A stretch of DNA of 63,885 nt, counting the filler, from Candidatus Fermentibacterota bacterium (lineage in GTDB: Bacteria; JAFGKV01), in the NCBI GenBank assembly GCA_016928395.1. It is 9 parts of 9 records of this genome, joined end to end, with 100 filler letters (N's around TTAATTAATTAA, not from the genome) between each part and the next. Parts side by side here need not be neighbours in the genome. Positions count along the whole stretch, not along the records: positions 8,489 to 22,632 come from JAFGKV010000338.1; 8 more parts are not named here. One strand, given 5' to 3'. Below the pieces are notes generated by a model. The model made no database searches, was not told the origin of the DNA, and saw only the letters and a program-made list of their open reading frames with translations. The stretch's first letter is position 1; every line of letters starts with the position of its first letter. Position numbers and translations under genes: made by a program. Of the stretch, positions 1,057 through 22,550 are shown one piece after another.

Positions 1057-4000
1057 TCACCGTTGCGTTGCTGACTCCGGCCTGGGCTGCGCCTCGGCCT
1101 CCGACCGCGCTGTCCGATTCAGGGTAGCCGGCATCACATCTTGGATGTTCATCTGCGCGCCCCGCGCCATGGCCTCCTCCAAAGCTTCTGGGGTCAGCCG
1201 CTCCCGCAGGGCCGCCATCACGCCCTCGGCGTCGTGGGCGACTTCGGCATTGCTGCGAGGATGCCGCAGCGCAAGACCTAAGAGCTCGGCCGCCCCAATG
1301 GAATCACCTTCTCCCATGACGATTTCGGCCTTGCCCGCCAACGTCGAAAGGGCAACCCACACCGCGTCCACCGCCAAGGCCTCCTCGCAGGCGCGGGCAT
1401 AGCACGAAAGGGCCGTGGCCCGGTCGCCCAACCGGCAGTGGGCCTGGCCCACATTTGCCATGTCTATGGCGGCACTCCATCGATCACCAACCCTGCAGGC
1501 GAACTCATAGTCGGCCTCGTAGCAGCGGAGGGCTGCGTGATAGTCGCCCTGGGCCATGTAGACATTCCCAAGGTTAGCCCGGCATGTCGCAGTCTCGAAC
1601 GGGGCACCGGCTGCCTCCGCCAGGCGGATGCCCTCCAGGTAGTATCGTTCTGCCGCGGGATAGTCGGCAGTGTTCAACGCGGCATTCCCCAAGAGCGTGT
1701 ACGCCCGCGCCATGTGGTACTCATCGTGCGATCCGTGGGATAGTTCGAGGCACTCCTGCCCACACCGCGCAACACCGGCATAGTCACCCATGAAGAAGAG
1801 CACGTAGCCCATGGCGTACAGCGCGTTTCTGATGGTGGAGGGATCCTCCGTGCCCCGCGCCAATACGACGCCGCGCTCGCCAAGGCATCTTGCCTCCGCG
1901 ATATCCCCGCAAAGGCAGGCAATTCTACACAAAAGGCTGAGTGCGCGAGCAGCCAGCTCCCCATGAGAGCCTACCAAGTTCAGCCCCTCCTCAAGGTGCC
2001 CGCGAGCATCCGTGAACTCGCTGAGCTTCATACGCGCCTCTCCGAGCAGAATCTGAAGAGCGGCCTTCTTCTGGGGCGTGTCCGCCGCGGCCGCGCCGCG
2101 CGCAAGCAGCTCCAGTGCCCGTTCGGCGTCGGAAATGGCCTGACGGAGATCCGCGCTCTGGACTGCCGCATCGGCGGCCCTCTTGAGCCACTCCGCGGCA
2201 CAAGTCGCGCTGCCGGCTTTTTCATAGTGATCGGCGATGAGCGCGGCGAACTCCCGGGTTCGCTCACCGGTCTGACGCTCCAGCCACAATGCCGCGTGCT
2301 GGTGGTAGATGCGGCGAGAACGCAGAAGCACGGTCTCGTAGACTACCTCACGGAGCACAGCATGCTTGAAAAGATACTCACCTGCATCACAGAATCGGGA
2401 CGGGCAGTGAGGGAACACCAGGTTCTTACTCTGAACTTCACAAAGGCATGCTTCGATGTCGATCTGCTCCTCGCCGGCGTCCTGCATGGCGCGGATCGAT
2501 CCATCCCAGAAGTAACGCCCCACCACCGCAGCCCTCTGGAGTAGTACTCGTTCGTCCGGCGAGAGACCGTCGAAACGCGCCTGAAGGACCCCGGTGAGTG
2601 TAGTGGGCACCCGAAGGCCCTGAAGGCGGTCCGACTGCACCGACCATCTCTCTCTGCCCCGAATGATCACGCCGTCGTCGATCAGCATCTTGATAATCTC
2701 TTCGAGGTAGAAGGGATTTCCTTCGGCATGCCCGACGATCTGCTCGCACAGACTGGTGGGCAGATCGTCAACGTGAAGCAGGATATCGGCGACCAAGGTC
2801 TGGCTCTGGGAAGGCGTGAGGGGCGAGAGGGCCACATGCATGAACCCCGGCAGCCCATCCTGTCGCCAACTTGGGACGCGCTCGAACAGTGCCGGGCGTG
2901 CCGTGCCGATGAGCAGGAGCCGGCTATGAGGGAGATCACTCGTGATGCGAGCGATGAACTCCAGGGAGGGGAGGTCGGCCCAATGCAGGTCTTCCAGGAG
3001 GATGACAAGTGGCGTGTCCCGACTCAGATCCCGGAAATAGACCCATAGGTGAGAGAGGGCGGTCTGGGCGAACGTTGCGCTGTCAAGCAGGTGTCTCACG
3101 CCCGGCGCCGTGGAGAAATCGAAACCGAGCAAATGCCCCGTCACGTGAGCCTGTTCGGTGCTCAGATACGCCGCGGTATGTCTTTCGAACTTGCGCTGCA
3201 CCTCGGCCACAGCATCACTCTCCGTGATCGAGAAATGCGCACGGAGCAGATCGCGAAGCAACCCGTAGGGAGTCGTGGTCAACTCGGGAGAGGCCCGGCC
3301 GCGCACACAAAGCGCCACGGGGGCCTGACTCTGTCGCCATCGCTCGAATTCAAAAAGCAGTCTGGATTTTCCGATCCCCGCCTCTCCAAGGATTAGAGCG
3401 CTTCGGGCCTCCGGCCCCCCCATCGCGTGCCCGTACGCGCGTTGAAGCACATCAAGCTCATTCTCACGCCCCACCATGGGAGTCTCCACATCCTCCACAC
3501 ACCGCGCGGGCCTCGCCGTAGTAGAGGAGCGAAGACCAACAACAAGATAGGTGCGAAGAGGTTCGCTCTTGCCCTTCACCGAAAGCGGTTCCATGGCCCG
3601 CGCCTCAAACATCCCCCGCACGTGACGGTACGTTACATGAGCGATGAGCACGCCGCCGGGTGGTGCGGAAGTCTGGATGCGGGACGCGGTGTTGACGGCA
3701 TCACCTGCCACCGCAAACCCGTCTGCCCGATTCGAGTTGAAGCTGACTGCCACCAACCCCGTGTTGATCCCGATGCGAAGGCGAAGAGGGGCGGGAACGC
3801 AGCACGAAGCGTGCTCTTTGGGCGCACGACGTTCCGACCGAGTGCCGTCCTCGTTCCACCCCCAGTCTTGATTGAGTGCCGACATCGTGCGCTGGAGCTC
3901 CAGCCCGGTCAGCACCGCGTTCGACGGGTCAGTCTCCCGGGCCGCGGGGATGCCGAAGACTGCCACCACCGCGTCACCGATGAACTTCTCCACAACCCCG

Positions 4001-4299
4001 CCGTGCCGCTCAACCACCTCGCGGCACGCCTTGAAGAACGACGCCTGCATCTCGCCGACATCCTCGGGGTCCATCGCTTCAGCAATGGAAGTGAACCCTG
4101 CCAGGTCGGCGAACAGAATTGTGACCTGACGGCGTTCTTCCGTGGCAGCCTGCGCTCGAAGTGCCGCCAGCTTCTCCCGCAGGGTCCCAATAGCGGTATC
4201 CACCACCGCATCACCCAACACCGCGCGCTGGGTCTCCATGTGGACGAGGGCGTGCTGCAGGGCGTGGGCTTCGTCTGCGCCACCCTCGCTGCCCGACAT
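1057..4299 (-). CDS. Class III nucleotide cyclase + AAA/STAND-type ATPase + TPR protein
   Basis: ILFADLAGFT, EKFIGDAV, GDAVNTASR; GRENEL, Walker A GEAGIGKS, LLEDLHWAD, EGNPFYLEE; C-terminal TPRs. Start moved to 4299/4302 (CAGGAG SD). Confidence 0.88.
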   Translation of the reverse strand: MSGSEGGADEAHALQHALVHMETQRAVLGDAVVDTAIGTLREKLAALRAQAATEERRQVTILFADLAGFTSIAEAMDPEDVGEMQASFFKACREVVERHGGVVEKFIGDAVVAVFGIPAARETDPSNAVLTGLELQRTMSALNQDWGWNEDGTRSERRAPKEHASCCVPAPLRLRIGINTGLVAVSFNSNRADGFAVAGDAVNTASRIQTSAPPGGVLIAHVTYRHVRGMFEARAMEPLSVKGKSEPLRTYLVVGLRSSTTARPARCVEDVETPMVGRENELDVLQRAYGHAMGGPEARSALILGEAGIGKSRLLFEFERWRQSQAPVALCVRGRASPELTTTPYGLLRDLLRAHFSITESDAVAEVQRKFERHTAAYLSTEQAHVTGHLLGFDFSTAPGVRHLLDSATFAQTALSHLWVYFRDLSRDTPLVILLEDLHWADLPSLEFIARITSDLPHSRLLLIGTARPALFERVPSWRQDGLPGFMHVALSPLTPSQSQTLVADILLHVDDLPTSLCEQIVGHAEGNPFYLEEIIKMLIDDGVIIRGRERWSVQSDRLQGLRVPTTLTGVLQARFDGLSPDERVLLQRAAVVGRYFWDGSIRAMQDAGEEQIDIEACLCEVQSKNLVFPHCPSRFCDAGEYLFKHAVLREVVYETVLLRSRRIYHQHAALWLERQTGERTREFAALIADHYEKAGSATCAAEWLKRAADAAVQSADLRQAISDAERALELLARGAAAADTPQKKAALQILLGEARMKLSEFTDARGHLEEGLNLVGSHGELAARALSLLCRIACLCGDIAEARCLGERGVVLARGTEDPSTIRNALYAMGYVLFFMGDYAGVARCGQECLELSHGSHDEYHMARAYTLLGNAALNTADYPAAERYYLEGIRLAEAAGAPFETATCRANLGNVYMAQGDYHAALRCYEADYEFACRVGDRWSAAIDMANVGQAHCRLGDRATALSCYARACEEALAVDAVWVALSTLAGKAEIVMGEGDSIGAAELLGLALRHPRSNAEVAHDAEGVMAALRERLTPEALEEAMARGAQMNIQDVMPATLNRTARSEAEAQPRPESATQR

Positions 4300-4610
4300 C
4301 ACGAGGAGCTCCTGCTGGCCATCGGCCAGACCACGCGGTCGTGGGATGGACTCGAGACGGGGTACTGCGTCATCGTGATGGCGTACTGATGCATGGCCGG
4401 CTCCTTTGGTACTGGCGCCAAGACGCAATGCCACAGGCCATGAGTCAATAGCGTTGTTACCTGGTCGCTCCCGGCCCATCACTACTCAAGGGAATCGGCG
4501 ACCGTGGGGCCTTCCTTGGGAACGGATGGCGCCAGATAGGATTCACGGTTTCGCTCGCAGTTGGGAGGGTTGTGAGCTCAGGCCGGACTGCGGGCTTCGC
4601 CGTGCTGCGA

Positions 4611-4641
4611 AGTTCTCAGTTCTCACTTGTCGGTTCTCAGT
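4611..4641. repeat. Degenerate heptamer repeat (AGTTCTC)n
   Basis: agttctc agttctc acttgtc ggttctc agt. Confidence 0.6.
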
Positions 4642-4667
4642 CAAGCACAGACCGCTGACTGGCCTCC

Positions 4668-4696
4668 TTGACACCGCGCCATCGCTCGCCTACCAT
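4668..4696 (+). promoter_or_regulatory. Sigma70-type promoter for pgk-tpiA-secG
   Basis: TTGACA (4668-4673), 17 nt spacer, TACCAT (4691-4696). Confidence 0.7.
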
Positions 4697-4730
4697 CGGT
4701 TCAGTGATTCCGTACATGAGGAGGGTGAAG

Positions 4731-5939
4731 GTGGAACTGCAACGCATGACTGTTCGCGACGTGGATCTCGCGGGCACACGGGTGATCGCACGAGTTGATT
4801 ACAATGTGCCGTTGGATAGCGAAGGCCGCGTAACCGACGACCTGCGCATACGGGAAACGCTGCCCACGGTGCGATATGTGCTAGGCCACGGGGCTTCGCT
4901 GGTCTTGATGGCGCACCTGGGCCGGCCCAAGGGAAAGATCGTCCCCGGCCTGAGTTTGAGGCCGGTGGCCAACCGGCTCAGTGAATTGCTCAAGATCCCT
5001 GTGGCCATGGCACCAGATTGCGTGGGGCCTGAGACCGCGGTACTGGCCGCCGGTCTGAAGCCGGGCGGGATCCTGCTGCTGGAGAACCTCCGGTTCCACA
5101 AGGAGGAGGAGTCCAACGATCCGGATTTTGCCCGCCAACTGGCCACGTTCGGGGATGTCTACGTCAATGATGCCTTTGGAACTGCGCACCGCGCCCACGC
5201 CTCCACCGAGGGTATCACCCATCATCTCTCCACCTCGGTGGCCGGCTTCTTGATGGAAAGGGAGCTTGCGGCATTCCACGCCTTGCTGTCAGCGCCCCAA
5301 CGGCCCTTCCTGGCCATTCTCGGCGGCGCCAAGGTCAGCGATAAGATCGGCGTGCTGCAGAACCTCCTCCGTGTGGCCGATTCGGTGTTCGTGGGAGGCG
5401 CCATGGCGAACACGTTCCTGCTGGCCAAGGGATTCCGGGTGGGCGATTCACTGGTGGAAACCGCTGCCGTCGACACCGCGCGTGCCGTGATGGAAGACGC
5501 ATCCCGGATGGGCAAAGAGGTACTCCTGCCCGTCGATGTGGTGGTAGCCACCGAGCTATCGCGGGGTGCCGTGACCCGCGTGGTCCCCGGCGACGGCATT
5601 CCCGATGGGTGGAAGGCCCTGGACATCGGGCCACTGTCCATACAGGCAGTACGAGATTCCTGCGCCCATGCCGCCACGATTTTCTGGAATGGTCCCATGG
5701 GCGTCTTCGAAACGCCTCCCTTTGATGCGGGGACCATGGAGACCGCCCGGGCATTGGCGTCTGCGACATCCGCCGGAGTGGTCACGGTGGTCGGTGGCGG
5801 CGACTCGGGCGCGGCATTGCAGAAGGCGGGATTAGCTGCCGCGGTGACCCATCTTTCCACCGGCGGCGGCGCTAGTCTCGAACTGGTCGAAGGGCGTGAA
5901 CTTCCGGGCGTAATGGCCCTGCAGGCGGTCCAAGCATGA
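4731..5939 (+). CDS. pgk: Phosphoglycerate kinase
   Basis: RVDYNVP, HLGRPKG, LLENLRFH, NDAFGTAHRAH, GGAKVSDKI, WNGPMGVFE, STGGGASL; GTG start after GAGGAG. Confidence 0.98.
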   Translation: MELQRMTVRDVDLAGTRVIARVDYNVPLDSEGRVTDDLRIRETLPTVRYVLGHGASLVLMAHLGRPKGKIVPGLSLRPVANRLSELLKIPVAMAPDCVGPETAVLAAGLKPGGILLLENLRFHKEEESNDPDFARQLATFGDVYVNDAFGTAHRAHASTEGITHHLSTSVAGFLMERELAAFHALLSAPQRPFLAILGGAKVSDKIGVLQNLLRVADSVFVGGAMANTFLLAKGFRVGDSLVETAAVDTARAVMEDASRMGKEVLLPVDVVVATELSRGAVTRVVPGDGIPDGWKALDIGPLSIQAVRDSCAHAATIFWNGPMGVFETPPFDAGTMETARALASATSAGVVTVVGGGDSGAALQKAGLAAAVTHLSTGGGASLELVEGRELPGVMALQAVQA

Positions 5940-6706
5940 GAACTCCACTGGTTGTCGGCAACTGGAAGATGCATCTGAGCAGAGACGAGGCAGGCGCCTT
6001 GGCGGGCGAGATCCGAAACAAGCTCGACATCTCCCCCGATCAAGTGGGGGTCGCGGTGTGTCCGCCGTTCCCCTATCTCTCGGCGGTTCACGCCGTCCTC
6101 GCCGGCGGTCCGGTGGCGTTGGGGGCCCAAGATGGCCACTGGGCACCACAGGGTGCCTATACCGGCTGGGTCTCTATGCAAATGCTGGTTGACGTGGGAT
6201 GCCGCTATGTCATAATTGGTCACTCCGAACGTCGACAGTTCGCGCAGGAAACCGACACCGATATCGGCAAGAAGGTGAAGGCCGGCCTCGGGCAGGGTCT
6301 TGCGGTGATCCTCTGTGTTGGCGAGACGGGCCCCGAACGAGATGGCGGCATCACGTACGATGTCGTGATGCGACAGCTTTCGGGTGCATTGGAAGGCCTT
6401 TCGGGCGCTGAATGTGACAACTTGATCATCGCCTACGAGCCGGTCTGGGCAATTGGTACCGGCAAGACCGCGACACCCGCGATGGCACAGGAAGTCCATT
6501 CCTTCATCCGAAGCTGGATGGAGAAGAGGTGGGGTTTTGGCGCGGCCCAGAAGCTGATCATCCTGTATGGCGGAAGCGTCAAGCCTGACAACATGCGTAC
6601 CCTGGCCGCGATGCATGATATCGATGGAGCGCTGGTGGGAGGAGCCAGTCTCGGCGCACAGGGATTCCTTGAAATCGTCCGGCAGGCAGATGCCGGAAAG
6701 AGGTAG
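5936..6706 (+). CDS. tpiA: Triosephosphate isomerase
   Basis: GNWKM, GHSERR, AYEPVWAIGTG, LYGGSVKP, DGALVGGASL; ATGA overlap with pgk. Confidence 0.98.
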   Translation: MRTPLVVGNWKMHLSRDEAGALAGEIRNKLDISPDQVGVAVCPPFPYLSAVHAVLAGGPVALGAQDGHWAPQGAYTGWVSMQMLVDVGCRYVIIGHSERRQFAQETDTDIGKKVKAGLGQGLAVILCVGETGPERDGGITYDVVMRQLSGALEGLSGAECDNLIIAYEPVWAIGTGKTATPAMAQEVHSFIRSWMEKRWGFGAAQKLIILYGGSVKPDNMRTLAAMHDIDGALVGGASLGAQGFLEIVRQADAGKR

Positions 6707-6709
6707 TTG

Positions 6710-7090
6710 ATGTATACCATTCTCCTCATTCTTTTCGTGTTGATCTCCCTGCTACTCATGCTCGTCGTCCTCATTCAGTCCAGCAAGGGCGGCGGTCTCG
6801 GCGGGGCATTTGGAGGGGGAGGGGGCAGCCAGGCCGTCTTCGGCGGCAGGGGCGCGGCGCCTTTTCTGATCAAGGCCACGAGCTACCTTGCGACGGCTTA
6901 CTTCGTGCTGGCGCTGCTGCTCGGGATTGTGTCCGCTCGCCATCAGGGCGCCCGCAGTGCCATCGAACGGGAGCTGGCGGGAGTCGCTGGCGAATTGACA
7001 ACGCCCGGTGTGCCTGTATCTTCGGCTTTCGAGGTATTGTCATCTGACTCCGGTATCGCGGAGGACGTGGCGGACAGCGCCAGTCAGTAA
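6710..7090 (+). CDS. secG: Preprotein translocase subunit SecG
   Basis: TM-VLIQSSKGGGLGGAFGG-TM; conserved tpiA-secG-tRNA-Leu context. Confidence 0.93.
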   Translation: MYTILLILFVLISLLLMLVVLIQSSKGGGLGGAFGGGGGSQAVFGGRGAAPFLIKATSYLATAYFVLALLLGIVSARHQGARSAIERELAGVAGELTTPGVPVSSAFEVLSSDSGIAEDVADSASQ

Positions 7091-7098
7091 TCGCGCGT

Positions 7099-7184
7099 GC
7101 CGAGGTGGTGAAACATGGTAGACACGCCATCTTGAGGGGGTGGTGGGGAAACCCGTGCGGGTTCAAGTCCCGCCCTCGGCACCA
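7099..7184 (+). tRNA. tRNA-Leu(GAG)
   Basis: Acceptor GCCGAGG/CCTCGGC, anticodon arm CCATC-TTGAGGG-GGTGG, long variable arm, T-arm GCGGG-TTCAAGT-CCCGC, encoded ACCA. Confidence 0.96.
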
Positions 7185-7191
7185 GACGATG

Positions 7192-7232
7192 GGCCCGGCA
7201 TGCTCAGTGAGTATGCCGGGCCTCTTGTGGTT
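7192..7232 (+). terminator. Probable intrinsic terminator after tRNA-Leu
   Basis: Hairpin GGCCCGGCATGCTC-AGT-GAGTATGCCGGGCC followed by a weak U-rich tail TCTTGTGGTT. Confidence 0.6.
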
Positions 7233-7350
7233 ATGGCCTATCCGGATACCATTTCGCCGAAGACCGTATTCCGCCTCCGGTGCCGGCCCGGATCCCTTTC
7301 GCGTCTAACCTGTGAGCGTTCGCTCTTGATTGAATGAGAGGTACTGCCCA

Positions 7351-7944: not shown

Positions 7945-8053
7945 CGTATCCAGGCAAGGGCTTGGCCCATGCCTGGGCATCTCGAAGAATCAAGCCTGCC
8001 GGGTGTGAACCTTCGAGGCGGGGGTAATGGAATACGTTGCGAAAGGGAAGATT

Positions 8054-8388
8054 ATGTACATCCTCGTGCTCAACTGCGGGAGTTCCTCCGTCAAGTTCCA
8101 GCTTGTTGGCGAGCAGTCTCAGAGATGCATGGCCAGAGGATTGGTGGAGCGGATCGGGCTTTCGAGGCCCCGGCTGGTGTATCGGTTGGGCGATGATGCT
8201 CCGATAAAGCGAGATCTCCAGATCCAAGACCACGCGGGCGCCATCAGCGTGGCGCTGGACATGCTCACCGACGCTGAGTATGGCGTGATGAAGAACACGG
8301 CCGAAGTCGTGGGCATCGGGCACAGGGTGGTGCACGGAGGAGAACGTTTTTCCGATTCGGTGCTCATCACCGAGGATGTCATCGGCGA
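8054..8388 (+). CDS. ackA: Acetate kinase, 5' part (cut by contig end)
   Basis: ILVLNCGSSSVKFQL, GLVERIG, GHRVVHGGE. Confidence 0.95.
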
Positions 8389-8488
8389 NNNNNNNNNNNN
8401 NNNNNNNNNNNNNNNNNNNNNNNNNNNNNNNNTTAATTAATTAANNNNNNNNNNNNNNNNNNNNNNNNNNNNNNNNNNNNNNNNNNNN
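8389..8488. other. Artificial contig linker. Others: 22633-22732, 32372-32471, 37861-37960, 41148-41247, 44118-44217, 52038-52137, 61255-61354
   Basis: Same N-run + TTAATTAATTAA (stops in six frames) + N-run at eight places. Confidence 0.99.
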
Positions 8489-8907
8489 GTACGCCGCTCC
8501 TACCCTCGCGATGCGGTGCACAGACAATGTAGGAGCGCTGTCAAGCGCGAACGGAGGGCAGTTGCGGGTTGTACTCGGGGGGTTCGCGGCGTATGCCGCT
8601 CCTACGTTGGGGGAATGCGGTACACAGACAATGTAGGAGCGCTGTCAGGCGCGAACAGCGGAGAGAGTTCCCTAACCCTCATGGTTTTCGTTGGGCCTGC
8701 AATCTCAACAGGATGGGAGGCGCTCGTTCGGAGATTGCAGAACAAGGTTTCGGCGGACGGAATCGCGCACTGGCGAGTCGGAGAGCCCCCCGGAATGGGG
8801 ACTATTCTAATATTAGAATAGTCCCCAGGAAGCCTTTACGAAGCCGGGGAAAAGGCTCAGGGCGCGAAGGGGCGAGGCTATGCATTCGCAGCTGAAGGCG
8901 CTCCTAC
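8489..8907. repeat. GTAG-type REP cluster (BIME/REPIN-like), five alternating REPs
   Basis: GTAGGA-GCGC-N6-GCGC-GAA on + at 8529-8551 and 8633-8655. On -: GTAGGA-GCGGC-ATAC-GCCGC-GAA at 8583-8605, a truncated copy at 8489-8503, a variant at 8885-8907. Confidence 0.85.
8797..8826. repeat. Perfect 30-bp AT-rich palindrome
   Basis: GGGGACTATTCTAATATTAGAATAGTCCCC equals its own reverse complement. Confidence 0.95.
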
Positions 8908-8982
8908 AGAGATGCCGCTGCACCGCGCACGTGCGATGCGCCGCACTCTCAACCCCGAAAAACCTGAGTGCGCCCCGCGCCC

Positions 8983-10086
8983 TCAGAGGCCTGGGGACTG
9001 GGGGCGGGGAATGGTGATGGTGAAGGTAGTTCCTTTGCCGGTTTCGGTGGAGAAGAGGATGGATCCGCCGTGCGCCTCGACAATGGTACGTGCGATGGCC
9101 ATACCCAGACCCGTGCCCTTGCGTTTGCCGTAGGTGACGAAGGGTTCGAATACGCGGGAACGGATGGGCTCCGGGATGCCCGGGCCTGAGTCGGCAATGT
9201 CGAATCTCACCATCGTGTCGTCTTCCAAGGAAGCGTGGATTGTTACGGACCCTTCCCCGTTGCCGAATGCTTCCACGGCATTGCTCAGAATGTTCTGGAA
9301 CACCCGCATGAATCGGGTTCGATCAATGTCGATCTCGGTGTCCGCGGAATGAAGCGTGAGTGTGACACGGCTGCGAGTGAGGAAATCCTCGTTGTATACC
9401 TGGAACTCATGCAGGAACTGCTCCACCGTCACTCGTTCCCTCTGAAGGTCGGTGGATCCGCGGGAATAGGCCAGGAGCTCCTCGGCCATGGCCACCATGC
9501 GATTCAGCTGGCCAAGAATGAGTGTGCAGTAGTGTTCGGTTGCCGGGTTCTCAGACGCCTGGTCGATCATCTCGATGCCAAGCTGGATGCTGGTTATGGG
9601 GTTCTTGAAGTCATGGATGATGGAGCTGGCCATCTCACCGACGACCTGCATGCGCTCCTTGTGGAGAACCTGCGCCATGAACCGGGCATTGGTGGTCCTC
9701 AGATAGTCTGACACCCGGTGGACGAAATGCAGACTCGCGGCGCTCGGCTCGGCCCTGAGAACCTCCATGAGCAGGGGGCCAGGAATGCGGGCCACGCAAG
9801 CCTCGGTCTTGGCACAGGCGGCTGCGCTGCGCCCCAGATTATCAATCACTCCCATCTCACCGAAGTACTCGCCGGAATGCACCTCGGCCAGTGTCTCGGT
9901 ATGCTCTCTCGCACGTTTGGTAAGGGCGATGGTGCCGGAGAGCACCAAGAATACGGCGTCCGGGGGGTCGTGCTCCTCGAAGAGGGTTTCTCCGGGCTCA
10001 TGGTGTGTCACGACCACCGAATCCATGAGCCGCTGGCGAGCCGGCTCGGTGAATGGGGAAAAGAAGGGGTTTTCCTCAAGCTGCAT
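8983..10086 (-). CDS. Cytoplasmic histidine kinase with N-terminal cyclic-nucleotide-binding domain
   Basis: cNMP domain GEYFGEMGVIDNLGRSAAA; H-box IIHDFKNP; N-box NILSNAVEA; DSGPGI; GTGLGM; no TM segment. Confidence 0.92.
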   Translation of the reverse strand: MQLEENPFFSPFTEPARQRLMDSVVVTHHEPGETLFEEHDPPDAVFLVLSGTIALTKRAREHTETLAEVHSGEYFGEMGVIDNLGRSAAACAKTEACVARIPGPLLMEVLRAEPSAASLHFVHRVSDYLRTTNARFMAQVLHKERMQVVGEMASSIIHDFKNPITSIQLGIEMIDQASENPATEHYCTLILGQLNRMVAMAEELLAYSRGSTDLQRERVTVEQFLHEFQVYNEDFLTRSRVTLTLHSADTEIDIDRTRFMRVFQNILSNAVEAFGNGEGSVTIHASLEDDTMVRFDIADSGPGIPEPIRSRVFEPFVTYGKRKGTGLGMAIARTIVEAHGGSILFSTETGKGTTFTITIPRPQSPGL

Positions 10087-10132
10087 TCGCCACCTCACCA
10101 GCGTGAAATGGGGTATCAGGGCTTTGTCTCAA

Positions 10133-11995
10133 CTATCCAGATGTCCTGGCGGCCATGGCTACCCAGCTTCGCGTATTCGCTGTGGTGAGTCGCGCCGCCA
10201 TCACCACCGGAACGCATGGTGGGACTTTAAACAACCTGCGCATGCTTCGCGAAAGGGTCTCGATAGTCCGCTCGGATGGGTCATCTGCCAGGGTCGGCAC
10301 CAGCACGACCACCGCCATCGCACAGGAATCGGGCAGGGCATCGATGAGCTTGCGCGCCTCGAGGACCCGCGGGCTCATGCTGTCAAGCACGACGAGGAAG
10401 ATGGGGGGCACATCGCCATCAAGCACTCGGGCCACCTCGTGGTCCTGCCGCCAGTCGGCGCTGGCGATGAGCAGCCATGACGGCGCGTCCCTTGACGCGC
10501 GAACCACGTAGGTCCACGCATCGCCTTGCGGAAGGTCCGCCGCGGTTTGACGGGATCCCGTCAGCATGTCGACGGTATCGATGGCCACGGCGGGGGAGGT
10601 GCCCAACACGATCACCGATTGCGCCTTGATGCCGGCCACGGCCAGAGCGGCATCGCGGGGAGTAGCGACGAGTCGCGTCAAAGGCGCCGCTGGCGTGAAT
10701 TCATCTCCCAGGAGGTCAATCGTCATGCGTGTATCGCGATCGTGGGATGTCGGTTCGCCGGTGAGCGATGGGTGAGTCTTGTCGGAGGGAGGGGGCGCGA
10801 CCGGCCCTTCCTTTGCCCCATATGTTCCATCGAAGGGCTCCTCATCGGGGCTGGTCAGGACCTCCGTTACGATGCTGTCGACTACATCCTTGGAGATTGT
10901 CGCGCCTGAGAGAGTCTTCATGGCGACCAGTCGCTTTGCCACGCCCTGAAGGGTTCGGAGGTCGCTTTCCAGTACCGAGGCCAGATGCGCGAGGATCTCA
11001 TCATCGATCGGCCAGTTGTTTCGTTGCGCCGTCGCGCGCAGAATGCTCGTGCGGAGAGTGGCATCCGGCTGATCGATACGTACGACCAGGCCCAACGCAA
11101 AAGAAGTACTGATCTCGGTAGTGATGGTATTGAGCTCTTCGGGACGGCGATCGCTGGAAATGACGATTTGATTGCCCTTGTCGTACATGACGGCGAGGAT
11201 GTCGGCGGCCACGGTCTGCATGCTGGGTGAGATGGCGAGGAATTGGATATCGTCAACCAGCATGACGTCGGCCTGGAGATACTGTTCCCGCAGCAGGGAA
11301 ACCTGTCGATCGCGATATGCATCCACTATCTGGGCGCTGAAGACTTCCGACGTCAGGTACAGAATCTTGACCCCGTTGCTCCGCCGGTAGACTTCGTTGG
11401 CCAGGGCGCACATGAGATGCGTCTTCCCCAGCCCAGGTCCGCCGTATAAGAACAACGGGTTGAAACGCTTTCCCGGGTCTTCCGACGCAGCCCGGCAGGC
11501 TTCGTAGGCGGAGCGGTTGCCGGTGCCGGGAACAAATGTATCGAACGTCAATTGGGCGAGATGCTCAAGGCCCCTTGCGGCGAAAGGACCCTGGGGCAAT
11601 GGGGCCCGCTGAGACCGGATCGTGTCGCGAAAACGGACCGTGCTGCGCACCCGGGCGACCAGTTCCTTGCCGCTGAAAGGCTTGGTCATGTAGTCGTTGG
11701 CGCCCAGGTCAAGGCCCTTGATCCTGTCCTCTTCCTCGCCCTTGGCGCTGAGGATGATCAGCGGTGTTCCGGCGATGAGAGGATCGGAACGCACCCTCTG
11801 AACGAGCTCGAACCCGTCCATCCTCGGCATCATGACGTCACTCAGCACCAGGTCAGGGTGCTCTCCCCGGATCACCTCAAGGGCCTCTACTCCGTCTCCG
11901 GCCTCCATGACGCTCATGCCTCCCTGAGCAAGCACGGCTTTGACCAACTCAAGCATCACGGGATCATCGTCAACGACCAGAATCCTCTCACTCAC
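10133..11995 (-). CDS. Response-regulator receiver fused to a DnaA domain III-like AAA+ ATPase and a C-terminal alpha/beta domain
   Basis: REC (VVDDD, LSDVMMP, KPF); TFDTFVPG, NPLFLYGGPGLGKTHL, LVDDIQFL, ISSDRRP, DLRTLQG; no DnaA domain I or IV. Confidence 0.88.
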   Translation of the reverse strand: MSERILVVDDDPVMLELVKAVLAQGGMSVMEAGDGVEALEVIRGEHPDLVLSDVMMPRMDGFELVQRVRSDPLIAGTPLIILSAKGEEEDRIKGLDLGANDYMTKPFSGKELVARVRSTVRFRDTIRSQRAPLPQGPFAARGLEHLAQLTFDTFVPGTGNRSAYEACRAASEDPGKRFNPLFLYGGPGLGKTHLMCALANEVYRRSNGVKILYLTSEVFSAQIVDAYRDRQVSLLREQYLQADVMLVDDIQFLAISPSMQTVAADILAVMYDKGNQIVISSDRRPEELNTITTEISTSFALGLVVRIDQPDATLRTSILRATAQRNNWPIDDEILAHLASVLESDLRTLQGVAKRLVAMKTLSGATISKDVVDSIVTEVLTSPDEEPFDGTYGAKEGPVAPPPSDKTHPSLTGEPTSHDRDTRMTIDLLGDEFTPAAPLTRLVATPRDAALAVAGIKAQSVIVLGTSPAVAIDTVDMLTGSRQTAADLPQGDAWTYVVRASRDAPSWLLIASADWRQDHEVARVLDGDVPPIFLVVLDSMSPRVLEARKLIDALPDSCAMAVVVLVPTLADDPSERTIETLSRSMRRLFKVPPCVPVVMAARLTTANTRSWVAMAARTSG

Positions 11996-12126
11996 AGTAC
12001 CCCTCCTCGTGCGATATTCTCAGCATACACCCTGGGGCCGCGCACTGGCAGGACAATTCGTCACCCATGGGCGGTCTGATCGACGGTCGACGAAACCCGG
12101 CGGTCGGCCTCTGCCTCCGCGTACGC

Positions 12127-12930
12127 CTACGTCTTCTCACCACGGTCCTGCATCACCGCGAAAATTTCCCTTACATCGCTCAACAGGGCAGCGAAGCGGT
12201 TGAAATCCAGAGATTGCAGCCCATCGGACAGGGCCTTGGCAGGGTTCGGGTGAACCTCGACCATCAACCCGTCGGCGCCGGCGGCGATGGCGGCACGAGC
12301 CATTGGTATCACAATGTCCGATCGGCCGGTGCCATGCGATGGATCTACGATGATGGGCAGGTCTGTCGCTATCCGCGCGATGGGAACAACGTTCAGATCC
12401 AGTGTATTCCGCGTCGCGCTTTCGAAGGTGCGAATACCACGTTCGCAGAGGATCACGGCATCATTGCCCTCGCGCCTCAGATACTCGGCCGCAAGGAAAA
12501 ACTCGTGGCTGTCGGCCATGAATCCTCGTTTCAGCAGCACCGGATTTGGCTGCGTTCCAAGACGCTTGAGAAGGGCATAATTGTCCATATTGCGGGTGCC
12601 GATCTGAAGAATCGCCGCCACGGACGAGAGGAGCGGGATCTGCTCGGCCTCCATGACCTCGCTCACCAAGAACACGCCGTGTCTTTCTCCTACGGCACGC
12701 ACCATGTCGACACCGTCCAGTCCGAGACCCTGGAAGGTGAATGGAGACGTCCGTGGCTTAAACACTCCAGCTCGGACCAGACGGATTCCGTGCTCGACCA
12801 GCATCGCCACGATCTCGTCGAACATCGACTCGCTCTCCACGGCGCACGGGCCCGCGATTATGAGGGGTTCACGTTCGGCTATGCGAAAGGATGCCTTCAA
12901 CTTCGACAGTGCGGGAGATGGCCGTCTCAT
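12127..12930 (-). CDS. aroF: DAHP synthase, type I-beta, without N-terminal regulatory domain
   Basis: IAGPCAVES, FKPRTSP, QIGTRNM, LLKRG, CERGIRTFE, DPSHGTG, EVHPNP..ALSDG; ATGA overlap with the upstream gene. Confidence 0.95.
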   Translation of the reverse strand: MRRPSPALSKLKASFRIAEREPLIIAGPCAVESESMFDEIVAMLVEHGIRLVRAGVFKPRTSPFTFQGLGLDGVDMVRAVGERHGVFLVSEVMEAEQIPLLSSVAAILQIGTRNMDNYALLKRLGTQPNPVLLKRGFMADSHEFFLAAEYLRREGNDAVILCERGIRTFESATRNTLDLNVVPIARIATDLPIIVDPSHGTGRSDIVIPMARAAIAAGADGLMVEVHPNPAKALSDGLQSLDFNRFAALLSDVREIFAVMQDRGEKT

Positions 12931-14702
12931 GTTCGCCTGCAGTGGTCGATGATGCACGTGAAGATCTCGCGAACTGAGTCATCGAAGAGCGGGCCGGTAT
13001 TGCTCCCAACCATCCTCTGTAGTACGGCTTCGTCCGCCGACAGAGGAGTCTCGTCACTCCGGGACGTCGAGGCGATCGACGATGCCCGTGTGTTGATCAA
13101 ACCGAGTAGGGCCTTGTCGATGGCATCGATGCCCATGGAAGGGAACCTGCCGGATGCGAGCGCTGACTTGTCGATTCTGCCATCCGGCATCCGAGGCAAT
13201 GCGGTCAAGATGTGAATCTGGGGAAGGTCGGATCTGAAGAACCGGCGAAGGCGTTCCACCATGGATGTGACGGAGAGGGGGCCCTCACCGTGCTCCACAT
13301 AGATTGTCGGAAGAGAGGGCTCGGTTTCGGTGATGATCGCGGCCGAGTCGGCAACTCCCGGTACCCGAGCCAGCGCGTTCTCCAGCCTCACCAAAGAGAT
13401 CGGTCGACCTTCGCGGAGGACAGCTTCACCAGGCCTACCGGCCAGGCGAAGACCGCCGTCGGCGGTTAACCGCGCCAGGTCGCCGGTGGCAAACCACCCC
13501 TCGGGCCCGCGCGCAGGCTGTTTGTCGAAATACGCGAGGCTCACGGCCTCGCCTCGAAGCAGCAATTCACCCTCTCTGCCGCCGCCATTTGATCGTAGCG
13601 ACGCTTCGTAGCCGGGGCAGGGAAGGCCGCATACGTCAAGGGTATCGGGAGTGATGGGTCCCATGAGGGCGATGCCCGACGTTTCCGCCGACCCCCACGC
13701 GTTCATCAGCCGCAATCCCGCCGCGGCCAAGCGGGAGATGAGACGCGGCTTGGCATAATCACCCACCAGAACAACGCCACTGACACCGCCCAGAGCTTCG
13801 GTGACGCGATCTCCGAACGGGAGCACTCCTTCCAGTACGCGGGGGGAGGCGATGACCCAGGTGGGGGAGTGCCTGTACAGAAGGGCGAGAATGGTCCGCG
13901 GATACGGGAAGTCTACCGCCACCGTCGTACATCCCGTAACTAGGCCTTTGCCCACAAGCTCGTGCGGGTGCTGCCACGCGGGAAACAGACATGCGACCGA
14001 ATCGTCTCCTCCCAGGCCCAGCACCTGGGCGGTGCCCGAGGCATTGCCCAGCACCATCGCGTGGGTGAGCACCGCGCCCCGAGGAAAAGCAGTCGCGCCG
14101 CCCCGGGTAAAGTCCACGGTCACCGGGCTGTTCTCAGCCGCAGACGAGGGCCAGGGACCCCCTGAGCGCGGTGTAGCCCGTTCACGCGAACTCCACGACA
14201 AGATCTTCCCCGCGCGTACAACTCTGGGAACCTCCAAACGGCCATCGGTGATAAGCACCGAGGCTCGAGAGGATACCTCGCGCAAGAACGCGCGCTGCCA
14301 TCGCGGGTTGAGCGGCATCTGCACCGCCTCGACCATGCCCGCAGCGCAGAGGCTGATCACATGGAAGGGTGCTGAAGTACCCCAGACAGCCACGGTAGAG
14401 CCCGGCCTCACGCCGGCGTCCACGAGGGCCTCGGTCATAGCCAGGGTTTGGAGGAAGAGATCCTCCCACGTGAACACCTCGCCATCCCACAGCAGGGCGG
14501 CATGTCTCGGCCGTCTGCGCGCAAGCCTGGCCAGGGCGTGATGAATTGTTCCGCTTGTGTACTGAGGTATGTTCAATCGAGGCTCCTTGTCTTCCTCTAC
14601 CGTGGCACGTTTCTCACCGCACTGCGGGGTTCGCTGCGCTGCCGTACTTCCTGTCTCGCCCGTCGTCATTTCCGAGGTGTTCCCTGAAGGCGAAATGAAC
14701 AC
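12927..14702 (-). CDS. AMP-binding (ANL) ligase-like protein fused to a C-terminal AroQ chorismate mutase-like domain
   Basis: NAWGSAETSG, GELLLRG, WFATGDLA, LPRMPDGRID; C-terminus IDAIDKALLGLINTRA...NTGPLFDDSVREIF; start uncertain between 14669 and 14702. Confidence 0.8.
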   Translation of the reverse strand: MFISPSGNTSEMTTGETGSTAAQRTPQCGEKRATVEEDKEPRLNIPQYTSGTIHHALARLARRRPRHAALLWDGEVFTWEDLFLQTLAMTEALVDAGVRPGSTVAVWGTSAPFHVISLCAAGMVEAVQMPLNPRWQRAFLREVSSRASVLITDGRLEVPRVVRAGKILSWSSRERATPRSGGPWPSSAAENSPVTVDFTRGGATAFPRGAVLTHAMVLGNASGTAQVLGLGGDDSVACLFPAWQHPHELVGKGLVTGCTTVAVDFPYPRTILALLYRHSPTWVIASPRVLEGVLPFGDRVTEALGGVSGVVLVGDYAKPRLISRLAAAGLRLMNAWGSAETSGIALMGPITPDTLDVCGLPCPGYEASLRSNGGGREGELLLRGEAVSLAYFDKQPARGPEGWFATGDLARLTADGGLRLAGRPGEAVLREGRPISLVRLENALARVPGVADSAAIITETEPSLPTIYVEHGEGPLSVTSMVERLRRFFRSDLPQIHILTALPRMPDGRIDKSALASGRFPSMGIDAIDKALLGLINTRASSIASTSRSDETPLSADEAVLQRMVGSNTGPLFDDSVREIFTCIIDHCRRT

Positions 14703-14746
14703 CTCCTGGTACGGCCACTACCGCCTCGGTGGTCAGCCCCACACCA

Positions 14747-17017
14747 TTAACGCTGGCTCCAGAGTGCCGGCATGCTTCGGAGTATGATCACCATATCCAG
14801 CAGCAGCGACCGATTCCTGAGATAGAAGAAATCATGCTCTACGTCAGATCCTACTCCAACATCGCCGGCTCTGCCCACGAGCCACATTCCGGTGAGGCCA
14901 GGACGGACTTCCAGCAGCAGTCGTTCCCAATACGGCGCATGGGCCATCCTCTCCGGGGGCTCACCTCTGGGGCCCACCAGGCTCATGTCTCCCCGAACCA
15001 CCCCCAATAGCCTCGGCACTCGGTCGAGGCCACTGCGACGAATACACCGATCAAGGAAACACATTCGGTCTGGCATGGCGAGTCTGGTGGTGGTGAAAGA
15101 GCGCCCTCCTCTCCCGATTCGTCTCTCGCAGACAAAAAGCGGCCGCCTCCCACGGAGTGCCGATGCGACTGTGTACAGGAGAAGTACCGGCGCGGTGGCG
15201 GCAAGGCCGAACAGCGCGACCGCGCGGTCGAAGATCGTCTTGATCGCCCCCTGGATGTATCCGAAACGGGGTCTGCTTAAGTCCAACACCGATAGACTGG
15301 TCAATGAGGTGACCTGTCTGCTGGCCGCGTCCATGGGTCCGGGGTTCGATACCGCTTTGCACGAGACTCCCGATGCGTCACACGCCAATGCCGCAGCCAT
15401 GGTCTCCACGGGAGAAAGCGTTGGATCGGCGATCAGCACTTCATCGACTGCCAGTGAGAGAGCAAGCGCAGGCATGCTCTCCGGCCTGCCAACCCAGGGG
15501 ATTGTCGAAGGCCTTGTCTTTGAAGGAGGATCGCGACTCACGAACCCTACGGGAGTATACCCCAGAGACGGATAGCGAAGCATTCTGTCCACCAGCGAGA
15601 ACGCAGTCTCCCCACCGCCGACCACCAGGCAGCGGGACGAGCGATACCCTTCCTGCAGCAGGCGGCGCTGCAGCGCGCGCACAAGCGATCTGAAGAAGAC
15701 TATGAGGGGCACGACCATGACGAAGAGCAAGAGCACAAGCACTCTGCTATAGTCGAATTTGGCTAGGAAAGACAGTGCCATGATCACCAGTAGCGAGAAG
15801 ACAGAACCGCGGGTAACCCGGATGAACTCAACAAAGGGAGTGGTATGTACGCGCACCGCATAGAGATTGAGATAGGAAAACGCTCCCAACCACAGACACA
15901 CGACGATCGGGAGCGGCCTGAGGTAGACGTCGATTCCGTGGGCAAACGGAGTCAGGGCATTGGCCACCACCCGTGTGCGAATGAGGAATGCTGCCAGAAA
16001 GGCCCCGACCACGGCAAAGGTGTCAGCGAGCACCAAGAGCGCAGGCACCAAAAGGTCCTTTTCCCGATGGGCCAAAGCTCCCGCCGCTCCGCCTGCGCCA
16101 AGGGCCAATGACCGGCCCAACGCGAGGGGGAAAAACATTGGCATGATGGCTGGGTCGGTGCGCAGCATGGAGGTCATGAGCGGCACCGTTGTTGCCACGA
16201 GCACTGCGAATGCCGCCACGGGAATCTGCCACGGCAGCACCCCCACGACCGCGATCAATGCCAGGAGCAGGCAGAGGGGCGCCAAGGCGGCCTGCACCTT
16301 CAGGAGTTGCGGGGTATAGCTATCTGCCAGAAGCTTGGCTGGATGCCGACGGTACACCATTGCCCGCCAATAGGCGCGGAGGAATTTGGTGCGGAGGTAT
16401 TTCGTCAGGGATTGCGGATGCCTGTGGTAGACTACCGCGTCCGGGGCGAATACCATGCGCGCTCCCCGGGCGGCCAGCTTGTACGAGAGATCGACATCTT
16501 CGTTGTTGGCCTTGGGAAATCGGAGATCAAAGCCTCCTGCTTCGCGGAAGGCTTGGGCTCGGATTGCCGCGGAATAGGTGTCGACGAAGTCGATGAACCG
16601 GTATCCCAAGAGCCGGCGGTATCGCTCCTCGAATTCCACCTGGGCGAACCGGGCCGCGATGGACCGCTGGCGCGTCTTGTAGGCGCCCTTCACCGCGATG
16701 ACCGCAGGGTCCGCCATGGGCGCCGTCAACTGGTCGAGCCACTGGGAATGCGGTTCGCAATCGCTATCGGTGAACACAAGCACATCGCCGCGAGCAGCCT
16801 CCGCTCCGTGGTTCCGCGCTGCAGCCGGCCCCGAGCGGGTCTGCGAGAGAACCCGATCGGCCAGACTCGCGGCAATGGTGGCGGTGGCATCGGTGGAACC
16901 ATCGTCAACTACGATGATCTCGAAGGAATCCCGCGGAACCGTCTGGTTATGAACGGCGCGCAAGGCACGCTCTATGGTGTCCTCGGCATTGTAGGCAGGT
17001 ATGATGACGCTGATCAT
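14747..17017 (-). CDS. GT2 glycosyltransferase fused to a WcaJ-like polyprenyl-phosphate phosphoglycosyltransferase
   Basis: ISVIIPAYN, VVDDGSTD, FTDSDC, NEDVDL; TM bundle, Rossmann-like LVVGGG, GDMSLVGPR, VRPGLTG, YLRNRSLLLD. Confidence 0.88.
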   Translation of the reverse strand: MISVIIPAYNAEDTIERALRAVHNQTVPRDSFEIIVVDDGSTDATATIAASLADRVLSQTRSGPAAARNHGAEAARGDVLVFTDSDCEPHSQWLDQLTAPMADPAVIAVKGAYKTRQRSIAARFAQVEFEERYRRLLGYRFIDFVDTYSAAIRAQAFREAGGFDLRFPKANNEDVDLSYKLAARGARMVFAPDAVVYHRHPQSLTKYLRTKFLRAYWRAMVYRRHPAKLLADSYTPQLLKVQAALAPLCLLLALIAVVGVLPWQIPVAAFAVLVATTVPLMTSMLRTDPAIMPMFFPLALGRSLALGAGGAAGALAHREKDLLVPALLVLADTFAVVGAFLAAFLIRTRVVANALTPFAHGIDVYLRPLPIVVCLWLGAFSYLNLYAVRVHTTPFVEFIRVTRGSVFSLLVIMALSFLAKFDYSRVLVLLLFVMVVPLIVFFRSLVRALQRRLLQEGYRSSRCLVVGGGETAFSLVDRMLRYPSLGYTPVGFVSRDPPSKTRPSTIPWVGRPESMPALALSLAVDEVLIADPTLSPVETMAAALACDASGVSCKAVSNPGPMDAASRQVTSLTSLSVLDLSRPRFGYIQGAIKTIFDRAVALFGLAATAPVLLLYTVASALRGRRPLFVCERRIGRGGRSFTTTRLAMPDRMCFLDRCIRRSGLDRVPRLLGVVRGDMSLVGPRGEPPERMAHAPYWERLLLEVRPGLTGMWLVGRAGDVGVGSDVEHDFFYLRNRSLLLDMVIILRSMPALWSQR

Positions 17018-18444: not shown

Positions 18445-18447
18445 AGG

Positions 18448-20432: not shown

Positions 20433-20527
20433 CCGCTACCTCTTTCCGTGTGAACAGGGATCTCACCATAGCAAGTATCGCCGGGGCCCCGCGTCAACTG
20501 CTTGCTGTCGTGACCCTGAGGATGTAA

Positions 20528-22479: not shown

Positions 22480-22494
22480 GGGAGACTCACCTGT

Positions 22495-22550
22495 ATCGGC
22501 TGTCAGCTATCGGCGGTTGGCTATCGGCTGTCAGCTTACTCCTATCTCCT
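22495..22550 (+). repeat. Heptamer repeats RTCRGCT followed by an ACTCCTATCTCCT unit
   Basis: atcggct gtcagct atcggcg gttggct atcggct gtcagct tactcctatctcct. Confidence 0.8.

Follow-up and report, generated by a model that had tools for sequence, protein, structure and literature searches.

Background

What is the ATPase domain of a replication initiator doing in a protein that opens with the receiver domain of a two-component system and is encoded beside a kinase apparently equipped to bind cyclic nucleotides? This question is raised by a locus in the assembly GCA_016928395.1 of a Candidatus Fermentibacterota bacterium, of which we analysed a stretch of 63,885 nucleotides (hereafter the window) made up of nine contigs set end to end. 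The gene at issue encodes a regulator in which a receiver (REC) domain precedes domain III of DnaA, and its neighbor encodes a histidine kinase with a cyclic nucleotide monophosphate (cNMP)-binding domain. An initial annotation of the locus had noticed this pairing and proposed that the regulator could cap DnaA filaments or be a repurposed nucleotide switch. As judged from sequence, the Eisenbacteria/Fermentibacteria lineage has taken over domain III for use as a signalling output, and we rate the regulator family as a candidate for both an undescribed class of response-regulator output and an undescribed family of DnaA paralogues.

Domain architecture of the regulator

The regulator and kinase genes share one contig of the window (positions 8489–22632, 14,144 nt; JAFGKV010000338.1), so sequence to the left of position 8489 is unlinked to them. 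The features on which the analysis turns are as follows.

10133–11995, minus strand: response regulator gene, 620 aa, stop codon included, encoding REC, DnaA domain III, a linker and a C-terminal domain of predicted GTPase fold (open reading frame (ORF) and domain scans)
11645–11983, minus strand: receiver domain, residues 5–117 (Pfam Response_reg, E 3.6e-32)
10850–11560, minus strand: DnaA domain III (AAA+ core and lid), residues 146–382 (TIGR00362; ungapped alignment to Bacillus subtilis DnaA 8btg)
11099–11116, minus strand: box VII remnant EISTSF, residues 294–299, with E294 as the R281 equivalent and S298 at the R285-equivalent finger position
10694–10849, minus strand: acidic, proline-rich linker predicted to be disordered, residues 383–434, variable in length and sequence across the family (predicted local distance difference test score (pLDDT) <50 at residues 383–424)
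10136–10693, minus strand: family-specific C-terminal domain, residues 435–620, with a predicted alpha/beta, small-GTPase-like fold and no P-loop
8983–10098, minus strand: gene for an apparently soluble cNMP-binding histidine kinase, 371 aa, starting 34 nt downstream of the regulator (Pfam)
9754–10005, 9457–9639 and 9001–9324, minus strand: kinase domains cNMP_binding (residues 32–115), HisKA (154–214) and HATPase_c (259–366), respectively (Pfam)

The N-terminus of the regulator is supported by alignment with 32 homologues. Pfam and NCBIfam scans agreed with the initial annotation that the protein joins REC to DnaA domain III and lacks domains I and IV, in that neither DnaA_N nor Bac_DnaA_C (PF08299) was matched anywhere in it. 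The receiver scored 111.3 bits against the Response_reg cut-off of 30.2, residues 1–121 aligned to residues 1–121 of solved PhoB chains (phmmer), and the catalytic residues are in place: the D9/D10 acidic pocket, the phospho-acceptor D53 (codon at 11837–11839), S83 and K105. Across 33 aligned sequences D9 is invariant and the other four are at least 90% conserved. The receiver domain is thus apparently intact, and with the testable features of the REC superfamily present (domain score and catalytic residues) the protein is best classed as a response regulator.

Domain III is of the DnaA type. Pfam Bac_DnaA matched residues 148–305 (E 2.5e-48), TIGR00362 covered residues 146–382 (profile positions 105–341 of 437) at 236.1 bits under a cut-off of 343.9, and the best match among solved chains was B. 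subtilis DnaA (8bv3/8btg, E 4e-49; phmmer), to which residues 148–374 align gap-free, so that no insertion or deletion stands opposite the initiator-specific helices. Alignment to the B. subtilis protein bore out the motifs read earlier: Walker A (GGPGLGKT at 185), Walker B (LVDD at 246), sensor I (SDR at 281, with D282 and R283 retained) and sensor II (DLRTL at 345) are present, EISTSF at 294 lies opposite RLRSRF of box VII, and ISPSMQTVAAD, with QTVAAD in the place of QEEFFH, lies opposite GKEQTQEEFFH.

To describe what is kept and what is lost, we aligned domain III from 52 distinct family members with 10 canonical DnaAs and other paralogues. Regulator positions were matched to Escherichia coli numbering by a fixed shift of +13 from the latter, for which Walker A, Walker B, box VII and sensor II served as anchors, the canonical DnaAs in the alignment being other than that of E. 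coli, and with K178 and the Walker B residues presumed to carry these numbers in the E. coli protein. The counts, by regulator position with the E. coli equivalent in brackets, are given below.

K191, D248, D249 and R347 (K178, D235, D236, R334): kept in 52/52 family members and 10/10 canonical DnaAs
294 (R281): E in 45, G in 6, D in 1 and R in 0 of the family; R in 10 canonical DnaAs
298 (R285, finger): G in 20, A in 12, S in 7, R in 7 and others in 6 of the family; R in 10 canonical DnaAs
240 (R227, AID-1): R in 0/52 of the family; R in 10 canonical DnaAs
256 (K243): S in 52/52 of the family; K in 10 canonical DnaAs
258 (R245, B motif): S in 47, G in 4 and T in 1 of the family; R in 5, S in 3 and G in 2 canonical DnaAs
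303 (L290): L in 42/52 of the family; L in 8 canonical DnaAs

The position equivalent to V211 is hydrophobic in most family members, and the QEEFFHTFN helix, which is invariant in DnaA, has been rewritten in the family and yet is conserved there in its new form (Q260, V262, A263). In a review that covers these E. coli residues, R285 is described as recognising the ATP of the neighboring protomer, R281, R227, L290 and K243 as serving the interaction between domains III, V211 and R245 as binding single-stranded DNA, and R334 as sensor 2 (PMC5742627). The ATP pocket of the family is therefore intact, while the donor face and the basic DNA-contacting residues have undergone systematic replacement, in many cases by residues conserved in their own right. 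This fits the earlier proposal that the regulator could bind ATP and accept an arginine finger but not donate one: the ATP residues are kept in 52/52 sequences, the R281 equivalent is never arginine, and a finger arginine occurs in only 7/52. The initial annotation had also held that homologues with their box VII arginines in place would speak against it; the R281 equivalent gives no such case (0/52), while the 7/52 members that keep the finger arginine do constitute one for a minority clade.

Selection was gauged by comparing the regulator with its orthologue at locus L001 (69% identity; Nei-Gojobori). The ratio of nonsynonymous to synonymous divergence (dN/dS) was 0.08 in REC, 0.085 in domain III, 0.23 in the C-terminal domain and 0.74 in the linker; since dS was 1.0–1.6 and near saturation these ratios are rough, although the contrast between folded domains and linker is clear despite it. 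All three folded domains are under purifying selection and the gene is not decaying; the relaxed selection that the annotation had named as counter-evidence was not seen (0.08–0.23 in the folded domains).

A conserved C-terminal domain

The residues after domain III, where the initial annotation had described nothing, proved to contain a folded and conserved domain (435–620). Full-length homologues (33) align over 99% of the length of the regulator with 57 invariant columns, and the last 190 residues hold conserved tryptophans (W494, W507, W515 and W611, invariant or nearly so) together with D538, R548, R586 and R609. An AlphaFold2 model of the full-length protein had a mean pLDDT of 86.5, with residues 383–424 disordered and 435–620 folded; modelled alone, the C-terminal domain reached a pLDDT of 90.4 and a predicted template modelling score (pTM) of 0.89. 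Foldseek returned 97 matches to this model in the PDB at E<=1e-3, and those listed were all GTPases or G-domains (Rac1, RhoA, Cdc42, Rheb, Rap1B, Rab1b, FeoB, EngB, Nog1), at modest scores (E about 1e-4, query template modelling (TM) score 0.38–0.56, root-mean-square deviation 5–8.5 Å, identity 8–20%). In the ESM Atlas, which supplies evidence of another kind, the nearest clusters were likewise only GTPases (MMR_HSR1, Dynamin_N), at 0.88–0.90, a similarity at the level of a lead.

The sequence hallmarks of a GTPase are missing from the domain. The P-loop pattern GxxxxGK[ST] is absent, the first strand-loop reading LGTSPAVAIDT against a family consensus of VVVLGxSxALVxDTVEAL; no NKxD motif was seen on reading the C-terminal-domain alignment, and no Pfam GTPase family matched the regulator. 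When 1.84 billion representative proteins were searched with a profile of the domain, only 19 matched at E<=1e-3 and 14 at E<=1e-10, all 14 being members or fragments of the same REC-DnaAIII-C-terminal-domain family. The weak tail of that search (E 1e-5 to 5e-4), which contained CWB2, S-layer and other unrelated proteins, was set aside as chance or remote fold likeness. Set against a full-length DnaA profile, the domain resembled none of the DnaA domains (hhalign probability 0.2%), and it has an isoelectric point (pI) of 7.1, that of the whole regulator being 5.0. Lacking a P-loop, the domain is probably not a GTPase; we read it as a lineage-specific GTPase-fold domain that would be nucleotide-free, and its predicted fold points to an output other than DnaA.

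Family, paralogues and phylogeny

The regulator belongs to a family of about 50 full-length homologue clusters at 42–70% identity, named as Ca. Eisenbacteria or Ca. Fermentibacteria and annotated at NCBI under generic product names, "DnaA/Hda family protein" or "response regulator"; beyond the family, the matches that followed were ordinary DnaAs covering 38% of the query. A second copy was not found within the whole window by tblastn. Among the matches listed from a search of 185,579 species genomes, full-length ones fell in two genomes, G001 (a Ca. Eisenbacteria record) and G002 (a Ca. Fermentibacteria record), which this genome set treats as one phylum and to which the phylum-level search was confined. 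There were 10 Bac_DnaA matches in G001 and 12 in G002, and in only one gene of each genome did a strong Bac_DnaA_C match accompany them. That gene is the canonical dnaA, and the separate initiator gene for which the initial annotation had asked for a check is present in both relatives.

Exactly four genes in each of G001 and G002 carry the C-terminal domain, and the paralogues of DnaA domain III other than the initiator number 7 in G001 and 10 in G002, fused to REC or to MshEN, the latter a receptor domain for cyclic di-GMP (c-di-GMP; PMC5013675). Besides the family of the regulator, the types without domain IV are REC-DnaAIII proteins of 390–407 aa, REC-DnaAIII proteins with an extension of about 100 aa, and MshEN-DnaAIII proteins of about 400–440 aa; these sister architectures are rare, MshEN-DnaAIII forming 15 clusters and short REC-DnaAIII 18. 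Shorter REC-DnaAIII genes without the C-terminal domain were located in L105 (3595–4815), L101 (4085–5254), L008 (1850–3319) and L007 (7971–9488), some encoding 390–407 aa and others 490–506 aa with the unassigned extension of about 100 aa, and none of them has the box VII arginines. At L099 (G002:C14) three consecutive MshEN-DnaAIII genes (4309–7257, 8694–9920 and 9942–15920) encode proteins of 983, 409 and 1993 aa, and the 1993-aa protein contains two DnaA-III modules that both keep RLRSRF. On one contig of G001 (L104, G001:C168) a REC-DnaAIII-C-terminal-domain paralogue (2189–4042) and the canonical dnaA (16425–17828) lie about 12 kb apart.

A rapid maximum-likelihood analysis of 71 domain III sequences gave a tree that contains long branches and whose placements are provisional. 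In it all receiver-fused paralogues without a canonical box VII formed one clade (58 rows, SH-aLRT 96) with the C-terminal-domain family as a subgroup (51 rows, SH-aLRT 87), and the modules that keep RLRSRF sat near canonical DnaA. The finger arginine is kept in one well-supported subclade (P0029, P0030, P0033, P0035, P0037) and in P0041 and P0051; per genome it occurs in one of the four copies, L003 in G001 (EISVRF) and L004 in G002 (EISRRF). P0051 (617 aa) has the DnaA-III and C-terminal domains and no Pfam REC match in its first 100 residues, and its box VII reads EVTARF, finger included.

A Chloroflexota candidate for a REC-DnaA fusion (L072) was discarded on being resolved into two separate ORFs (3872–5029 and 5065–6537). 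The searches also brought up more than 100 clusters of about 640–690 aa (P0149–P0253) with Bac_DnaA and without Bac_DnaA_C, the few named ones being Gemmatimonadota. All four proteins scanned (P0052, P0149, P0159 and P0165) have a tandem pair of Bac_DnaA matches and no Bac_DnaA_C, and such proteins look like another undescribed family of DnaA-III paralogues.

The adjacent kinase and gene neighborhoods

The next gene was confirmed as a cNMP-binding histidine kinase by three Pfam domains above their cut-offs (cNMP_binding 62.2 bits against 27.5, HisKA 34.7 against 26.9, HATPase_c 98.5 against 26.4). The protein opens directly with the cNMP domain, which leaves no room for a membrane anchor, and it therefore looks soluble; it also contains FGEMG...GRSA, which we take to resemble a phosphate-binding cassette. 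An orthologue, 74% identical, occupies the same position after the regulator at L001. A contig of 266 nt from a metatranscriptomic run of the probable source study matches the kinase gene at 9070–9335 with one mismatch, which may be a faint hint of transcription, DNA carry-over being possible; contigs from such runs gave none on the regulator gene, a gap that proves nothing about its expression.

Co-occurrence of the regulator with a cNMP kinase, which the initial annotation had proposed to test, did not extend across the family. Among nine loci examined, a histidine kinase adjoins the family gene at five (the window, L001, L006, L106 and L104), and it is a cNMP kinase only in the window and L001. 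A plain HisKA kinase lies directly upstream of the regulator at L006 and L106, and a hybrid kinase-REC-REC-Hpt gene directly upstream of the paralogue at L104; no kinase is adjacent at L002, L003 or L107, and at L004 the contig breaks off on the upstream side, with a sulfatase gene downstream. Neither dnaA, dnaN nor another replication gene stands next to a family gene in any of the nine neighborhoods (0/9).

The neighborhoods consist of envelope, protease or other non-replication genes. The window and L001 share a DAHP/KDO8P-synthase-family gene, an AMP-binding enzyme and a glycosyltransferase fused to a sugar transferase. Further upstream in the window, beyond the part of L001 that was annotated, are a B12-radical-SAM enzyme, a lipid A acyltransferase-like protein and a heptosyltransferase. 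Neighbors at L107 are a rhomboid, a signal peptidase, a CDP-alcohol phosphatidyltransferase and an S41 protease, and those at L003 and L004 an FG-GAP protein, a TPR-zincin protein and a sulfatase. A four-gene order of histidine kinase, REC-DnaAIII-C-terminal-domain regulator, amidohydrolase (462 and 466 aa) and subtilase (802 and 821 aa) is shared by L106 (G001:C384, 4958–11718) and L006 (G002:C253, 6564–13483), respectively, with the two regulators in different subclades of the tree.

Comparison with known systems

The regulator shares with DnaA the AAA+ core and lid, Walker A and B and sensors I and II, over residues 148–374 without a gap. It differs in that REC replaces domains I and II, the linker and GTPase-fold domain replace domain IV, and the equivalents of R281, R285, R227, K243 and R245 are not basic; with its equivalog score (TIGR00362) under the cut-off, no domain IV and no box VII arginines, it is by these measures not a DnaA. 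Like Hda and HdaA, it is a paralogue of DnaA domain III without domain IV that would coexist with DnaA. Hda keeps its arginine finger and has an N-terminal clamp-binding motif, whereas the regulator has REC at its N-terminus, S298 at the finger position and an extra C-terminal domain, and scored 82.8 bits on TIGR03420 against a cut-off of 194.8; both the score and the missing finger indicate that it is not an Hda.

NtrC-type regulators likewise place a receiver N-terminal to an AAA+ ATPase, and in them phosphorylation controls assembly of the AAA+ module and arginine fingers are kept. The AAA+ module of the regulator is of the initiator (DnaA) type, and neither Sigma54_activat (PF00158) nor a helix-turn-helix domain was matched in Pfam at E<=0.1; lacking the former, the protein is not NtrC-type. 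With regard to small Ras-like or TRAFAC GTPases and pseudo-GTPase domains, the predicted fold of the C-terminal domain matches the G-domains of Rac1, RhoA, Rheb, FeoB, EngB and Nog1 (E about 1e-4), from which it differs in having no P-loop, no Pfam GTPase match and TM-scores of only 0.38–0.56. The MshEN- and short REC-DnaAIII paralogues also carry domain III behind a signal-receiving domain (joint clade SH-aLRT 96) but have no GTPase-fold C-terminal domain, and of these the giant MshEN protein keeps RLRSRF twice. The initial annotation had not recognised a described system here, and our literature search for REC-DnaA or MshEN-DnaA fusions also found no description; "DnaA" occurs 0 times in the main text of the MshEN paper (PMC5013675), whose supplementary architecture tables lay outside the search and might list such fusions.

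Candidate mechanisms

We tentatively favor, at a little less than an even chance, the explanation that the protein is a response regulator in which an AAA+ module taken from DnaA has been made into a signalling part and serves as the output; the estimate is for this general mechanism, with a partner among the paralogues or elsewhere beyond the origin complex. The cNMP kinase, with its cNMP site occupied or emptied, would phosphorylate D53, and this would release or block the ATP-bound AAA+ module for head-to-tail association, by analogy with other REC-AAA+ regulators. Because it would be unable to donate an arginine, the module would enter such an assembly through its ATP face only, terminating rather than prolonging it, and its ATP would be hydrolysed only when a partner supplied the finger. 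Association would then position or cluster the GTPase-fold C-terminal domain, the putative effector surface proper, and the likeliest partners would be members of the same paralogue set, with its one finger-keeping member per genome, rather than the origin complex.

Several points weigh against this explanation. Phosphotransfer, ATP binding, oligomerisation and the partner are all putative, and the NtrC-type logic is an analogy. The full-length model shows no confident packing between domains (pTM 0.46), and the C-terminal domain resembles GTPases only in its fold (TM-score 0.38–0.56, identity 8–20%). The pattern of one finger-bearing paralogue per genome comes from two genomes, and the four G001 copies and the four G002 copies are placed in different subclades and hence are not one-to-one orthologues. 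The paralogue set and DnaA of the host itself are extrapolated from these relatives, and a modelled pairing with canonical DnaA did pass its mark, weakly, which leaves some room for DnaA as the partner.

That pairing belongs to the cap proposed at the outset, in which the ATP face of the regulator docks onto the finger face of canonical DnaA and caps or poisons the oriC filament, phosphorylation by the cNMP kinase being the switch that links cyclic nucleotides to initiation and, by extension, other REC- and MshEN-fused paralogues feeding further signals into it. We consider the cap unlikely, although domain III is closer to DnaA itself than to any other solved structure (B. subtilis, E 4e-49, gap-free), its complete ATP pocket and crippled donor side are what a cap requires, L303 (L290 equivalent) is kept in 42/52 and the V211 equivalent is mostly hydrophobic. 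The heterodimer was modelled from a pair of one and the same genome (G001), namely domain III of its DnaA and domain III of the L001 orthologue, together with two ATP and with a mark of 0.32; three runs agreed in at least 81% of contacts, the partner pLDDT was at least 84, and the score of 0.34 against 0.00 for the best control was graded as weak support. Of 80 solved complexes 58 reach the mark, as do 2 of 110 mismatched pairs, but scores of 0.60 or lower include only 7 of those 80 solved complexes and both passing mismatches; so weak a pass is wrong more often than not, except where the pairing was a likely one to begin with, and the use of our own alignments and of ATP ligands departs from the calibration of the modelling method. 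Since DnaA-DnaA filaments have been solved, the pass may reflect likeness only. The pairing that the initial annotation had suggested modelling thus passed when made with proteins of a relative (0.34 against 0.32), at a strength that suggests weak support for the cap and neither establishes nor removes it. Against the cap stand the 7–10 paralogues per genome, each with its own input, which exceed the need of a single cap, the conserved C-terminal domain, for which the model has no role, the rewritten but family-conserved QEEFFHTFN helix (Q260, V262, A263), and the absence of adjacent replication genes (0/9 neighborhoods), one G001 paralogue lying about 12 kb from dnaA. The single link from cNMP to replication that had been envisaged is likewise hard to maintain for a gene that is one of 7–10 paralogues per genome and has no replication-gene neighbors. 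A broader variant, in which the 7–10 signal-gated protomers of a genome, most of them unable to donate a finger, insert into or cap the DnaA oligomer at oriC and sum phosphorylation and c-di-GMP (MshEN) inputs on the initiator filament, seems to us distinctly improbable.

The paralogues might also form among themselves a mixed AAA+ assembly resembling the origin recognition complex (ORC) or a clamp loader, in which finger-less members would be regulatory and finger-bearing ones catalytic, two-component inputs would be integrated, and the clustered C-terminal domains would act outside replication. Exactly four C-terminal-domain genes in each of G001 and G002, one of which keeps the finger arginine (L003 EISVRF, L004 EISRRF), would agree with this, as would the different kinases flanking different paralogues and the near-invariant W494, W507, W515 and W611, which would suit a protein-protein surface. 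This evidence is drawn from two genomes, however, in which the paralogues lie on different contigs and in no single operon, and the subfamilies differ between G001 and G002, whereas stoichiometric complexes usually keep one-to-one orthologues; we regard such an assembly as a doubtful prospect. It is very improbable that the regulator is itself an initiator of replication, true or alternative, whose C-terminal domain has taken over from domain IV as a new kind of DNA-binding domain: the DnaA-type AAA+ core is kept and the C-terminal domain has no assigned function, but canonical DnaA with Bac_DnaA_C is present in both relatives, the copies number four per genome, the equivalents of the residues for single-stranded DNA binding and for action in trans are lost, and the C-terminal domain is GTPase-like with a pI of 7.1 in a protein of pI 5.0. 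A functionless dnaA duplicate in decay would explain the lost catalytic arginines and the absence of domains I and IV; dN/dS of 0.08–0.23 in the folded domains, about 50 full-length homologues with 57 invariant columns, an ATP pocket kept in 52/52 and replacements that are themselves conserved (S256 in 52/52, E294 in 45/52) make this scarcely credible.

Other features of the window

The joints between contigs, each a pair of 44-base runs of N (eight pairs in all), are at the following positions, and gene order across them is meaningless because the window is made of joined contigs.

8389–8488, 22633–22732, 32372–32471, 37861–37960, 41148–41247, 44118–44217, 52038–52137 and 61255–61354: contig joints (paired N runs)

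An acetate-kinase-like ORF (8027–8440) runs into the first joint. On the contig of the regulator, the DAHP_synth_1-family gene (12130–12957, minus strand), which could encode a DAHP synthase rather than a KDO8P synthase, overlaps the gene for the AMP-binding enzyme (12930–14702, minus strand), whose C-terminus gave a weak, sub-cut-off match to the chorismate mutase family CM_2 (E 9.6e-5). A scan of positions 8489–12400 found one promoter-like site (shuffled sequences averaging 1.1) and no terminators (shuffled sequences averaging 2.0), counts that are no higher than in the shuffles and so are uninformative on operon structure. A PADLOC scan of four proteins recovered no defence system, with generic P-loop, REC and cNMP-domain matches only.

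Significance

DnaA domain III is seen as reserved for initiating replication and for controlling initiation directly, as in DnaA and Hda. Here it appears instead as the output of two-component and, in sister paralogues, of c-di-GMP signalling, with several copies in each genome. A link to replication is hypothetical and the regulator gene is one of many paralogues; recruitment of an initiator ATPase in multiple copies would nonetheless surprise specialists. Should these proteins act on DnaA, they would offer a direct path, open to testing, by which cyclic-nucleotide and two-component signals reach initiation, and signals summed on the initiator filament, if real, would be a mode of replication control that to our knowledge is not known in any bacterium. 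Should they not act on DnaA, an initiator-type AAA+ module would prove to be re-usable as a generic ATP-dependent assembly switch, and the family would bring a new class of response-regulator output together with a new P-loop-less GTPase-fold domain. Either way, the family appears to be undescribed and is small enough for biochemistry.

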